IMG/VR virus record: IMGVR_UViG_646311923_000012
Source: a virus
Lineage: Duplodnaviria; Heunggongvirae; Uroviricota; Caudoviricetes
Direction: 5' to 3' (one strand)
DNA length: 64,000 nucleotides
In this document: positions 27,001 to 33,000 of the stretch, piece by piece
Layout of the letters: the number at the start of each line of letters is the position of its first letter
Position numbering within the stretch: the stretch's first letter is position 1
Made by a program: the position numbers

Positions 27001-30000
27001 CACCTATTGCCACCCACTGGGACGGAGAGACTTTGTCCAGCAGCTGCAGTAACCAGTATCCCGTCCCCACCGCTGACGTGGTGTATGACACACCTGTTGT
27101 GATTTTTTCCATCTGATGTATGTCTCCGTCACCGCCGACAGAAAATGAAAGTAAAGAAAAACAAAAAAGCCGCCAGTGTCACCCACTGACGGCCAACTCC
27201 GGGAGCCGTGATTATGGCATTCAGGCTCTGCTAAAAATGCCAGATAACATTCCGGCCACCCCCTGATTCAGGTTATAAATGACACAATATCTTGACAACA
27301 CCCGTCACTGTCTGTCAGAAAATATACCGCCAGGCATAAGTATCATGTGAAATCCAACTATCCTTCTGAGCCAGCACCTCTCCACCGAAAGTCAGTGCTG
27401 GCTGTTTTTTTCCTTAATAAAGCATCTGTAACTGAAACAATCCGCATATTGATAATATATTGACAGGCATCATTGCTGTCTGTGAAAAATAAGTCTCTAC
27501 AAACATATAAGGCCTTTTAGCCAGCGTCTTCTTTCAGGTCAGTCGCTGGCTCTTTTTTTATTATGCTGCCGGTGCATTTATCTCCAGCACCAGACTTTCT
27601 ATCTCAACGCCATACGCTGCATTTTTTGTAACATCCGTCAGCGTCAGCGCATTCAGTCCCAGTGTCAGACTGTCTTTTATAACCTGGAATGCCGGGCCAG
27701 CCACTCCATTCAGTTTCGGAGTAACCGTGGCACTGCCGGCGGTGAACACCAGCTCCAGCGTCTGCCAGTCGTTACCGTAATCGCCGAACTCCCCCAGCTT
27801 CGTGTTTCCGGCTTTCCTGTGATGCATCAGATTCACTCTGCCGTCAGTGGTCTGAGTGAAGTACGACATCAGGAACGGATTACCGGTACCCGTCATCGCC
27901 ACACCATCAGGAACGGGAGCATCCGTATACAGATAAATCCCCAGCCCGAACTGATTGTTGGTCAGTGCGCCTGACAGGCGGAACTTACAGGTCAGTCTGC
28001 CGCCCTGTGTCAGCAGGGTAATTGCGTCATCCACCGGATGCGTCAGGGACCAGGTTTTATTGCTCTGCTTGGTGATCTTAAATACACCATCTGACAACTG
28101 AATTCCGCCATCCTTAATGCTCCAGCCCTGCGCAGCAGCCTCTCCGGCTGCCGGCAGCAGGGAGATTGTGCGAACGGACGTATCTGCAGACGGACCCGAT
28201 GGCGTGTTGCCGCCGGGCGAGGGTTTGATTTCCGGTGCCTTACCACTGATGAAGGCTGAGGTGCGCCCGGCTGCGTTCAGAATAGCGGTTGCCAGACGAT
28301 CCGGAATAATGCTCCTGCGCGCCCATGAACTGAAATGTGTCGGGCGGTTTGATGATACCTGGTTTCCATTCGTTCTCGATGCCGCACCGTAATATCCTGA
28401 TGCCGGAATATCCGGATCTTCTGCCGGCGCGTTAGTGGCGGTATTGACGCCGTTACCGTCTGTCATGAAGGGCACAAAATAAACGCCCTCACTCTCCCTG
28501 TTTTTATACCCGCCGTACACGGTGTCGTACTGGGTAGCGTATGTATTTTTCCAGTAATACGTCGTGTCACCACAAATCCACGGCACATCTGCAGCACTGC
28601 CACCATGGCACTGCGCGTTAAACACGGAGAGGTCAGCACGAAACTGTGTCAGCATGGCTGTAAACAGCGCAGGTTGCTGTGCGTGGGTGGCGGCGCTCAT
28701 GTCAAACTCTCCCTGCATCCAGCACACCGCCAGCAACACATTTTTCGGGTTCTTCTGTAATGCAGCTTTGGTGCGCGCAATCAGGTCCTGATATAACGGT
28801 TTACCCACACCCCAGCGCGCCGAATCCTGGCTGGCCCCCGTGTCCGCACTGAATGTCCCCTCCGCGCCCTGGGTAAATGCCGAACCACCACGACAGCATG
28901 GTACCAGCAGGATCCCCGCGTTATTCGGGATATACGGAAGCAGTTTTTTGGCAATATGTAAGCCCTGGCCGACACAGCCGTACTGCCCTTTGCTCAGGTC
29001 TGCCTTCGGATGATTCAGCGTACTCATATCCTGCACATCATGCAGGCAGTGGTCAGCCGGAATGATGTCGTTATACGTACAACTCTCTCCACCCGGAGTT
29101 ACCGTGCTGCGGCGCGCCAGCTGTTTAATGCGCGGATCCGGAGCATCGTAAGAATCCGGTAACGGAAGCCCTTCACCGTAGGCCATGCCGTTGGACTGTC
29201 CGGCAAGCACAACCACGTAGAACCAGTCCGGCTCAGATGAAGGGCCGACCTGTGGATCTCCTTCAATAGCCACCGCCTGCATCAGTGTGTACGGCGTAAT
29301 GGCAACCGGTCCGCCGTATGGCTGCCAGCCCTCTTTCAGTTTGTGTGTCAGCTTTTCCGCAAGGTCTGACGGCGACGCCGCCCTGACAACATCATAGTGT
29401 TTAAATGCCATGAATCCTCCCGGCCGGGATAATATTGTGAGTAAAATGAGGAGCGGGCTGAAGTCCGGAAGTTACAGGACAATGGCAGAAGAGAGACAAC
29501 AGCCCGCAATACGAAAAAGGCCGCGCTATTGCGCAGAGTGATTACTGTCGGATATTATTCGCCAGCTGAAATATTACTTCACGTTTTGTTGTTTATTCCT
29601 TGTCGCCCGCGTCTCCCTGCGCGGGCTTTTTTTGTCCATAAGAAAGCCCCTCCGGAGAGGGGCTGGAGAGTGGCGCTATGTGCCATTGCATGGTGCCGGG
29701 TGCCTCCCGGTGAATTCAGTACCAGCACCTGAATCCGCGATTATCCCATATACCTACTCGCTGATTGCCCCTCCGCACAGGGGGATTCACCATGCCAGTT
29801 TCTTTTAACAAACTCCCCGCAAACCAGACAACAGTCAACCGCCTGAATTGTGAGACATTTAAAAAAAAGGCCCGCAAAAGCGAGCCAGGGAAAATAAGTG
29901 TGGCGCGTTGTACTGGATTCGAACCAGTGACCGATTGCTTAGAAGGCAATTGCTCTGTCCGGCTGAGCTAACAACGCAGGATACAGATAATGGACCGCCT

Positions 30001-33000
30001 TCGGGGACCCGAACTCCGCGCAACCAGCTTCGAAAGCTGGCGCTCTTTCCTGATGAGCTAATGGCGGTATGTGATGGTGGCCCTTGCTGGATTTGAACCA
30101 GCGACCTGGCGATTATGAGTCGCTCGCTCTCACCACTGAGCTAAAGGGCCGGGTCAAAAAATAATAATCAGATGAAAATCAATAATCAAGCCCTTGCCTG
30201 GATACATATCTGTCTGGCGGGAAGCCATAATAGCGGTGAAATACAGAAATAAAGTAGGACCAGCTTGAATAACCGCATTTTTCTGCTACAGCCTGTCCAT
30301 ATCCATGCCGGGAACATAACATATTCACAGCAACACGCATCCGCTCTTCCAGCAACAAGCGACTGAACATGTGCCCTTCATTTTTCAGTTTTATCTTTAA
30401 CAAACTCTCACTCATATGCAGGCGTAACGCAATCGCACCAAGCGTCCAGCTTGCTGATATATCTGTCTGAATTATCGCCCTGACTTTGGCACTTATGCTG
30501 GATAAACATCCACTTAAAAACAATGACATCCGTTCATCTGTTTCAAACAGAGACAGGCAGGCCATCATAAGAAACATATCCGTGGCCTCTCCGGAAAATC
30601 CCTGGCTGGTAATTAAAGCCGCAGCCAACGCAGGATTGTTGGGTTCCAGCAACAGGTAAAGCGGAATGTCAGTCAGACGAGTCCTCGTCAGCTTATGCTG
30701 ACTTTCCAGATATTGACTTACGACGGATTCGCTTATATCGACAATTTTAACTTTGCCATAATGCATAAGGAAAAGCTCCCTGATGCATTTGGTGGCCAGA
30801 ACGACTGAGCCTGGCTTAAGTGACAACGTATCCTTTTCAAGAAAAATATTAATTGGGGAGCAAACCATGATAACTGAACAGACAACAGCCATTATAATTT
30901 TACTTTCATTAGCAATTGGTTAGCTCAATTATAGCCCCAAAAGGTAAATTATCATCAACACATAAGCAAAGGACTGACAGGTGTCGCCCCCCCACCAGCC
31001 GCCCATTCACCACAAATAAAAAGCCTTCAGGACTGAAGGCGTCTGTAACAACCGCACTGATAGTCTGCCAGACCCGCCATAACAAGCTGGGTCAGTATTA
31101 ACTGGCAGCGTTCGCGTGAAAGGTAAGTATTCTGCGCAACCTCCCCGACTGTCGCCGGTTCGGTAACGCTTAATTCATTAAACACCACTCTGGCGGTTTC
31201 GGTCATATCCTGCTGTTTCAGCATGTCTTTTTCCCTTTTTCGGTTAACGTGACACACCAATAACTCTTGCCGAAAAAGCCAGCAAGCTGAAAGACCTGTA
31301 TTAATAACTACCAGCACATTTAACGCACTGCGCTACTTTGCGGGCACAAAAAACCCGCTCAGAGGCGGGGTCAAGCTATGCGGCGAAATAACCACTCTTA
31401 ACAGCATACCTGATTTTTTACGTACGTAAATGCTTTGCCGTGCATATTTTTCATGCAAATGTCACGTCCTGCTATTTTTCAGTCTTATAAATTTAAAACC
31501 ATAGAAAAAATCAATTATGTTTTAAAAATGGATAGGTAAAGAATAACAAGTGACACAGATTCAAACCAAAATGGAAAAGGGTGGCAACCCACAAACGCCC
31601 ACTCCACATCCATGACAATCCATACACAACACCAGATAACGTGGCAAATAATACAAGTAAAGCACCACCTGAATAGTGATAAAAACCAAACAACAAAGCC
31701 GCCACAATTAATGCAACCAATGGAGACGTTACTTCTGATAGCCGTGATTGAATATACCCTCTAAATAATGATTCCTCTGCCAGAGACACAAAAAACAAAT
31801 TAGCCAATATAAACTCTGGCAACCACTCAGGAAAATGAATCTCTGGCTTTAATCCACCAAAAAAAACAGCCAAAAACAGGATAAGAGGAACAGAGAGCGA
31901 CAGAGCCCCCCACTTCCACAAAGACACTTCTGATTTTACTTCTTTTTTAAACAAAGAAGATGTACACAGGACTAACAAAAATGGCACCAGCGCTTTATCA
32001 AAATTAAAATACATTGTATAGGGAGTACTCTGAGGGCCAACAGTAACAGAATTTAGCACTACAGGATTGTGAAACCCTGGCCATAGATGGAAAGATAATG
32101 CTATGGCTGATAAAACTATGCCAACTTCATATATAGATTTAGCCCAGGCGTTATATTTCCAGTTGAACTTCAAAATAATAAAAAAAACGATTGTAGCAAC
32201 AAAAAATAACACCGACCAATCAATAATATCATTAAGCACAGCCAGGACAACAGACACCGTCAACAATGAAAAAGCCACTACCTTATGCCAACTGAGAGTT
32301 GACAGTGACAGTACTAACACAATCCACATAAGCACTCCTTTTATTTAATGATGAAGATTGATTATCAATATTTTCAATTCACCAGGCAACATTTTATCTA
32401 CCTTCCACAATACATGACCATCAAAAAATAAACATGTTAATTATAAACACAGAAAACATAACCCTCATCACTATATATCCCTACCGCATATCCATATCTA
32501 ACCGGACATTCAGAGCCATAAGCATTCCTTCAATAATACCTTCCGCTTTATAAAGCCTTTTACCAATAAGCCCATCAGAACATCTATGCTTACGTGCAAG
32601 AGCCATAAATGTCATTCCACCTACGTAATAATCCACCAACAAATCGTGCAAATACTGATTATTCTTGTTTAATCGTGCCATACAACCACAAATTATCATG
32701 GCGTCATCATCAGAACACTGAGGACGTGATTTCACTTTAGTCGGGATTAATCCTTTAAAACCAGCAGCTATCGAGGGCCATGTTACATCTTCATGATTAT
32801 TTGCTGCCCATGCCCCCCATCGCTCAAGAACCATCTGGATATCACGCGCCATCGTTACCACCTCTGATTTCGTAAATCTTCACGCCCAGCCGTCCACCTG
32901 GCACAGGCTGACCGCGCACAATATTGATTTCATCAAACTGCTCGTCATCAATGAGCACTTCCGCATGCGTCAGCGCATCCAGCGGTGCTTTCAGAATGTT

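Follow-up and report, generated by a model that had tools for sequence, protein, structure and literature searches.

A probable Hfq-binding small RNA dyad between argO and nanS-p in an Sp4-type lambdoid prophage

We describe the late region of the prophage in IMG/VR virus record IMGVR_UViG_646311923_000012, a stretch of 64,000 nucleotides (nt) from a virus of the Caudoviricetes which is referred to below as the window, and in particular the 489 bp spacer that separates the transfer RNA (tRNA) gene argO from nanS-p. The locus is read along the minus strand, and the features are collected in Table 1. From positions 33067 to 27438 (5.6 kb) the window shares 98.8% identity with prophage Sp4 of Escherichia coli O157:H7 Sakai, and the gene order is the same: RusA, the antiterminator Q (ECs_1084), a CAAX protease (ECs_1085), a small open reading frame (ORF), ECs_1087, ileZ1-argN1-argO1, a gap of about 490 bp and ECs_1088. 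The tRNA genes of the two, including a degenerate argN, are identical, as is the empty junction that follows them, and the published small RNA (sRNA) probes discussed below match exactly. The differences from Sp4 amount to about 1.2% point differences and to the presence in Sakai of IS629 downstream of ECs_1088, where the window has holin and lysis genes. A 4 kb query around the locus is 100% identical to the chromosomes of O103:H2 (strain 129) and related non-O157 enterohaemorrhagic E. coli (EHEC), and 80% or more of the query is found in 569 of 5426 complete E. coli genomes.

A sequence-only reading had taken the spacer for an empty toxin locus filled with 490 bp of terminators. This description does not hold, as the spacer contains a full-length STnc100 sRNA gene and a convergent antisense RNA gene, both of which are matched exactly by published probes. 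In our view, the region is very probably the 'moron insertion site' among the late genes of a lambdoid prophage of the Sp4 type from an EHEC-lineage E. coli, with a convergent Hfq-binding sRNA dyad. It repeats, almost unchanged, an arrangement that has been published and probed experimentally.

The small RNA genes of the spacer

The sense sRNA is matched by Rfam family RF02076 over model positions 1–206 of 206, with a score of 138 bits against a gathering threshold of 47 and E = 2.6e-30 on the whole window. The Northern probe for EcOnc05 (Tree et al., 2014) matches exactly at 29732–29766, with the RNA on the minus strand and inside the STnc100 span. In Sakai, where it is encoded on the plus strand, EcOnc05 gives a Northern band of about 222 nt and a peak in cross-linking and analysis of cDNA with Hfq (Hfq-CRAC; Tree et al., 2014, Table S2, PMC4104026); this peak converts to approximately 29761–29653 on the minus strand of the window. 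The conversion was made through the alignment of the window with Sp4 and assumes that there is no coordinate shift between versions of the Sakai record, but the probe matches are independent of this assumption.

The RNAalifold consensus of 13 diverse homologues contains 36 base pairs, four of which show compensatory double changes, and consists of a long-range helix (CAUGGUG/CACCAUG), three well supported internal hairpins, a two-pair stem and the terminator. The only failure to pair in this alignment is at the loop-closing pair of the terminator in two sequences, and the terminator itself shows compensatory changes in divergent phages. The single-sequence fold of the window copy gives the consensus helices, with a minimum free energy of −74.4 kcal/mol (z = −2.2). 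Within the conserved scaffold, two segments (approximately 29764–29728 and 29686–29666) are hypervariable in both sequence and length, and may be target-recognition regions that differ among the prophage copies.

The sense sRNA shares with the family known as STnc100, EcOnc27 (Sakai) or sRNA103 (EDL933) its helices, its position immediately upstream of nanS-p and its late-operon orientation. The central insert is shorter in the window copy (191 nt, 138 bits) than in the Rfam model or in Stx2-phage copies such as that of Stx2_95 (215 nt, 160 bits), and the window copy scores lower because its first hypervariable segment is short. In Sp5 the 3′ half of STnc100 is replaced by another module, which is paired with AsxR. 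The family member just downstream of stx2B is EcOnc27/sRNA103, overexpression of which raises fimZ and espA transcripts (PMC12711010, PMC12370729, PMC7873438). EDL933 has 11 STnc100 copies, most of which are transcribed and one of which has been confirmed by Northern blotting; their ribosome coverage is mostly low but is raised for one copy (PMC5331693). In a 2026 preprint the family is described as related to PasD of enteropathogenic E. coli, and its association with the esterase gene is noted.

Three candidate promoter elements for the sense sRNA were considered and set aside. The sequence TTGACT at 29838–29833 would serve as a −35 element but has no acceptable −10 element at a distance of 16–18 nt, the conserved TTTGTTAAAA resembles an extended −10 element but lacks the final T, and CACAAT at 29852–29847 would suit the Northern size as a −10 element but has no −35 element.

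The probe for EcOnc08/21/42, AATAATATCCGACAGTAATCACTCTGCGCAATAGC, matches exactly at 29525–29559, with the RNA on the plus strand. EcOnc08 and EcOnc21 are Sp4 entries of about 271 nt that lie opposite in strand to EcOnc05 (Tree et al., 2014, Table S2, PMC4104026), and the corresponding Sakai Hfq-CRAC peaks (1179938–1180010 and 1180016–1180101) map to approximately 29629–29557 and 29551–29466, from which the minimum extent of the antisense RNA in Table 1 is taken. Its terminator is conserved across 41 distinct homologues. A candidate promoter, ATGCCA-17-GATAAT at 29405–29433, would yield an RNA of about 194 nt.

The two hairpins that had been noted in the spacer are both present, in opposite orientations (29605–29626 on the plus strand and 29664–29645 on the minus strand); the two terminators to which they belong oppose each other, 18 bp apart. 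Two further sense-strand terminator-like hairpins had been missed, one just past argO (29886–29869) and one at 29536–29521. The suggestion that one of the hairpins might be a tR′-like late terminator is not borne out: that at 29664–29645 is the terminator of the sense sRNA itself and the other faces the opposite way. Since the published probes match the window on the correct strands, the two hairpins are the terminators of the dyad and not tR′. The tR′ of Stx phages directly follows PR′ and precedes the tRNA genes (PMC7547250), and it is annotated directly after Q in Nil3, VT1-Sakai and VT2-Sakai; the hairpins at 29605–29664 are located about 2.8 kb downstream of Q, past three genes and three tRNA genes. 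A PR′/tR′ unit was sought directly after Q (32480–32330). This segment is AT-rich and contains several promoter-like matches but no terminator hairpin, such that tR′ was not located for this type of Q, and it differs from Stx-phage loci in having neither similarity to them nor the expected PR′-tR′ terminator.

Table 1. Positions of the features of the late region in the window
Feature	Position	Strand	Basis and remarks
STnc100-family sRNA gene (EcOnc05 of Sakai)	29634..29824	-	Rfam RF02076, full length; conserved module begins at about 29866
Terminator hairpin of the STnc100-family sRNA	29645..29664	-	8 bp stem, then TTTCTTATGG; 3′ helix of the Rfam model; second of the two hairpins noted earlier
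Convergent antisense RNA (EcOnc08/EcOnc21 of Sakai; homologue of Stx1-phage EcOnc42)	29466..29633	+	Minimum extent from mapped Hfq peaks
Terminator of the antisense RNA	29605..29633	+	GCCCGCGTCTCCCTGCGCGGGC + T7; stem 29605-29626, 8 bp (7 G-C), T-run 29627-29633; first of the two hairpins noted earlier
Third sense-strand terminator-like hairpin	29521..29536	-	CTGCGCAATAGCGCGG, then CCTTTTTCG; upstream of the nanS-p ribosome-binding site; conserved in homologues
Candidate internal sigma-70 promoter, TTGCGC-18-TATTAT	29529..29558	+	Inferred only; not listed by the promoter scan of the window
Intrinsic terminator of the tRNA cluster	29861..29886 (hairpin 29886-29869)	-	GGCTCGCTTTTGCGGGCC + T8; T-run abuts the sRNA module; kept in Stx2 phages
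argO, tRNA-Arg(TCT)	29901..29977	-	ARAGORN; Rfam 70.1 bits
argN, tRNA-Arg(TCG), degenerate copy	29991..30067	-	ARAGORN; Rfam 42.9 bits
tRNA with anticodon CAT, ileZ type	30075..30150	-	ARAGORN (called as Met); RefSeq tRNA-Ile / ileZ1; Rfam 72.5 bits
nanS-p type sialate O-acetylesterase gene, 616 aa	27561..29411	-	Pfam DUF1737, SASA, DUF6645; RefSeq 'SASA family carbohydrate esterase'; homologue of ECs_1088
AraC-type regulator, psrA (ECs_1087) homologue	30179..30892	-	Pfam HTH_18 and HTH_AraC; cargo between Q and tRNAs; inside the 98.8% identical Sp4 block
CAAX/CPBP (Rce1-like) intramembrane protease gene	31511..32329	-	Pfam PF02517, 70.6 bits; cargo between Q and tRNAs; homologue of ECs_1085
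Antiterminator Q gene, 123 aa	32481..32852	-	Pfam PF06530 Phage_antitermQ, 175 bits; RefSeq 'antiterminator Q family protein'; homologue of ECs_1084

The antisense RNA resembles the anti-sRNAs AsxR, AgvB and EcOnc03 in its position at the moron site, in being convergent with a sense sRNA and in its GC-rich terminator end. The AsxR/AgvB family (RF02703/RF02702) is defined by a conserved 3′ region of about 42 nt and a variable 5′ seed of 14–18 nt in a total of 51–60 nt, compared with about 271 nt for EcOnc08/21, and its conserved 3′ block, AGUAUCUCAUGC..UUGCCCGAACCCA.UCGGGC, is absent from the antisense RNA of the window. An Rfam search at E <= 10 returned no AsxR/AgvB match in 29400–29900, and none in a Stx2a phage. 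Membership of this family was accordingly rejected, as there is neither an Rfam match nor a block shared with the published sequences and the likeness is limited to position and orientation.

A shorter RNA may lie within the 3′ end of the antisense RNA. The candidate internal promoter listed in Table 1 would give a terminator-ended RNA of about 69 nt (approximately 29565–29633 on the plus strand), and the strongest Sakai Hfq peak (EcOnc08) coincides with this segment. Across 41 distinct sequences the conservation of each hexamer is at least 98%, whereas their flanks and the sequence transcribed downstream are variable. As the predicted start (about 29565) is downstream of the published probe, such an RNA could not have been detected with it. 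An overlapping hairpin (29521–29536) may, however, also account for the conservation of TTGCGCA. We therefore put forward only tentatively, as possible but rather doubtful, a separate Hfq-type sRNA of about 69 nt with its own promoter and a G/U-rich 5′ region, which would be a positional analogue of AsxR/AgvB but unrelated to them in sequence.

The stx2 position

The order Q ... ileZ-argN-argO ... nanS-p (which starts at 29411) followed by lysis genes does parallel that of Stx2 phages with stxAB missing, as had been proposed. The Stx2 phages 933W, VT2-Sakai/Sp5 and Stx2_95 share with the window the three tRNA genes and their terminator, the start of the sRNA module, and nanS-p and the lysis genes downstream, but differ from it in carrying stxAB and in having a methylase gene or nothing between Q and the tRNA genes, where the window has the CAAX protease and psrA. 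The absence of stxA and stxB extends beyond the locus to the whole window. A tblastn search of its 64 kb with Stx2A and Stx2B, in any frame, gave nothing better than E = 0.78, and a blastn search with the 1332 bp DNA of the stx2 cassette at a word size of 7 gave only 19 nt chance matches.

Alignment with four Stx2 phages (Stx2_95, VT2-Sakai, Stx2_131990 and WGPS6) places the cassette precisely. The homologous stretch begins at ileZ, takes in the argO terminator and ends at 29860, and homology is regained at 29857; the 1332 bp that the Stx2 phages have in between are made up of about 50 nt preceding stx2A, stx2AB itself and about 41 nt following it, and begin right after the T-run of the argO terminator. 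The start of the sRNA module (about 29866, TAAATGnCTCACAATTCAG) is constant across six upstream contexts, namely the argO terminator (window, Sp4 and Nil3), about 40 extra nucleotides (phi296), small ORFs after Q (PhiR5_1), a BcgI-like restriction gene (PhiR12_3), stx2 and stx1, the module in the stx1 context being of a more diverged form.

An 86 nt query across the junction is contiguous in 1017 of the 5426 complete E. coli genomes, or about a fifth, including those of O157:H7, O111 and O104:H4 strains and of an avian pathogenic E. coli strain. We also surveyed IMG/VR loci anchored on the start of nanS-p, which introduces no bias as to what lies upstream; the sample comprised 120 loci with 83 distinct upstream sequences, and classes were counted among loci with at least 2.3 kb upstream. 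The commonest class, with 23 distinct sequences, has the tRNA genes, no stx and the dyad type of the window, and a further 12 have the tRNA genes, no stx and an AsxR/AgvB-type dyad; 17 have neither tRNA genes nor stx, nine have stx2 and seven have stx1. The distance from argO to the ATG of nanS-p clusters at 487–503 nt in these loci (489 nt in the window). Most of the phage contigs in this nanS-p-anchored sample thus have an unfilled junction.

These data bear on whether the junction is the scar left by a recent deletion, in which a Stx2 phage lost stxAB and the tRNA genes became joined to the region upstream of nanS-p. Such an origin would account for the Stx2-like gene order and for the precise mapping of the cassette between 29860 and 29857, and the short similar strings TATATCTG and GTAATCTG that flank the cassette in Stx2 phages could have mediated its loss. 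These strings are, however, too short and too imperfect to be taken as a sign of target duplication or deletion. No remnant of stx is found at the protein or DNA level, the breakpoints are module boundaries that are common to phages with other cargo or none, and the uninterrupted junction occurs in many genomes, non-STEC (Shiga toxin-producing E. coli) lineages among them. Moreover, the flanks of the Stx2 phages are only 93% (tRNA side) and 71–86% (sRNA side) identical to the window, while the nearest relatives lack stx (strain 129, 100%; Sp4, 98.8%; PhiR5_1, 91.7%), as does Nil3, which is 98.4% identical over the tRNA–spacer stretch and 99.8% over the spacer. We consider a recent deletion very unlikely. 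In our view, because stx remnants are absent, the closest relatives are stx-less and the junction is widespread, the site is a common unfilled moron site; it may never have been filled, or an ancient loss may have been spread by recombination.

The coordinates given above define the site of the stx2 cassette at the level of single bases, between the T-run of the argO terminator and the start of the module, and the prevalence of the unfilled junction should be useful in judging claims of 'stx loss' in STEC typing.

Two other arrangements were observed at this position among the IMG/VR loci. In four of them (L025, L040, L129 and L043) a gene for a TerB-domain protein of 143 aa (PF05099, 61.7 bits) is located at the stx2 position between argO and the sRNA module. 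The argO terminator is followed there by TTTTTTGTATCCGCGCC, which is similar to the left end of the stx2 cassette, TTTTTTATATCTGCGCC, a likeness hinting that the TerB and stx2 cassettes may share an end. In five others (L115, L112, L018, L026 and L082) the gap between argO and nanS-p is about 960–975 nt rather than about 489 nt; the sRNA module starts right past argO and is followed by about 485 extra bp, which may be a tandem second dyad.

Interpretation of the spacer

Convergent Hfq-binding sRNA genes have been reported at the moron site of Sakai prophages Sp3, 4, 5, 9, 10, 11, 15 and 17, downstream of a Q-antiterminated promoter (Tree et al., 2014, PMC4104026). According to a 2021 review, which terms such pairs dyads, at least eight Sakai prophages carry them after the late promoter and ahead of the lysis genes; why they are arranged in this way is described there as unclear. 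Consistent with these accounts, the locus may be pictured as a series of modules. The tRNA cluster with its own terminator forms a self-contained unit placed after Q and the cargo genes, and the conserved sRNA module, which precedes nanS-p in many lambdoid phages, abuts that terminator. We infer from the literature that in lysogens both RNAs would be produced and bound by Hfq and would act in trans, their targets being mRNAs of the host or of prophages, and that on induction the Q-modified polymerase would read through all of the terminators to reach nanS-p and the lysis genes; the sense-strand terminators ahead of it are those at 31369, 31040, 29886, 29664 and 29536. In Stx phages the scaffold is the same, and a toxin cassette has been added after the tRNA terminator and ahead of the sRNA module; the prophage of the window may never have carried the cassette or may have gained the common unfilled version by recombination.

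Several observations weigh against this interpretation of the spacer as an sRNA dyad. The Northern size of EcOnc05 (about 222 nt) exceeds the 191 nt Rfam span, and that of EcOnc08/21 (about 271 nt) is longer than the approximately 194 nt expected from the best plus-strand promoter candidate; the start site of neither RNA could be fixed from the sequence. The evidence of expression comes from Sakai and EDL933, which are other strains than that of the window. We found no published direct target of EcOnc05 or EcOnc08/21 in the literature.

This last point, together with the unclear reason for the dyad arrangement, would also suit a spacer that acts as a stack of terminators insulating nanS-p and the lysis genes in lysogens, the RNAs being functionless by-products, and there are indeed four sense-strand terminator-like hairpins and one antisense hairpin between psrA and nanS-p. 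However, the scaffold of the sense RNA is multi-helical and conserved with compensatory changes well beyond the terminator. Both RNAs are bound by Hfq and give discrete Northern bands in Sakai, their positional paralogues AsxR and AgvB have demonstrated targets (PMC4104026), and most of the 11 STnc100 copies of EDL933 are transcribed (PMC5331693). An insulator without functional RNAs is therefore, in our judgement, highly improbable.

Least credible of all, and here dismissed, is a spacer that encodes small proteins: short ORFs do exist in it, the Prokaryotic Genome Annotation Pipeline (PGAP) calls a pseudogene at about 29680–29805 on the plus strand, three hypothetical coding sequences are annotated in phage phi296 (L002 4328–4758) and one EDL933 STnc100 copy has raised ribosome coverage (PMC5331693), but the ORFs overlap the strongly structured sRNA or cross both terminators, they run through hypervariable segments with numerous indels of lengths not divisible by three, PGAP flags its own ORF as an incomplete pseudogene and ribosome coverage is low for most of the EDL933 copies (PMC5331693). 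The PGAP pseudogene and the phi296 coding sequences opposite the STnc100 sRNA are probably annotation artefacts lying over an RNA gene that has been left unannotated.

The conclusion that the spacer is the site of an sRNA dyad leaves the current understanding of these prophages unchanged, but it does hold a lesson for annotation. The stretch between the phage tRNA genes (or stx) and nanS-p should not be regarded as empty or as consisting of terminators only, as it is occupied by a conserved two-gene sRNA module which automatic pipelines leave unannotated or miscall as small pseudo-ORFs.

The tRNA cluster and neighbouring loci

All three tRNA genes that had been read from the sequence were found by both ARAGORN and the Rfam tRNA model (threshold 29 bits). 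The tRNAs of Stx phages have been stated, on the basis of differential RNA sequencing, to have their own promoter (PMC7547250). A comparison of six phages and prophages showed no variation in ileZ, and argO is the same in five of them, the exception being VT2-Sakai (L006 3052–3128), in which one base directly 3′ of the anticodon is changed (TTCTGAG compared with TTCTAAG elsewhere). By comparison argN varies at about ten positions, the window copy being identical to argN1 of Sakai. The mismatches suspected in its stems were verified: pair 6:67 of the acceptor stem is A:A, and in the T stem an A stands opposite a C. To these can be added an altered T-loop (TTCGGGT, compared with TTCGAGT in Stx2-phage argN). 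Its score of 42.9 bits is lower than those of argN from Stx2_95 (56.3 bits) and phi296 (53.6 bits). Judged from its sequence, argN is degenerate, and it is reasonable to suspect that it may be nonfunctional.

Of the cargo genes between Q and the tRNA genes, the psrA homologue is an AraC-type regulator of the GAD/LEE (glutamate decarboxylase/locus of enterocyte effacement) cascade, and ecs1087 has been named psrA as a prophage-encoded regulator of type III secretion (PMC13502914). Its ORF is 237 aa in the window and 195 aa as annotated in Sakai, the two differing in the start call. A second regulator gene, of the PerC/Pch family, is located past the lysis genes at 24102–24416 (minus strand), the assignment being taken from the corresponding gene in the RefSeq record of O103:H2 strain 129; pchA is present in the corresponding region of Sakai Sp4.

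The surroundings of the prophage differ from those in strain 129, as the left end of the window adjoins a second prophage where strain 129 has a chromosomal flank. Past the integrase end, positions 48533–64000 match lambdoid tail genes at 94–96% identity and not the yccA-side chromosome of strain 129, so that a second prophage appears to be in tandem. Elsewhere in the window, a hokD/sok type I toxin–antitoxin locus is found upstream of the Q region at 34723–35046 on the minus strand (Rfam sok, 107 bits), and a DicF sRNA gene (77 bits) is found in the early region, beside dicB, at 43806–43857 on the plus strand.

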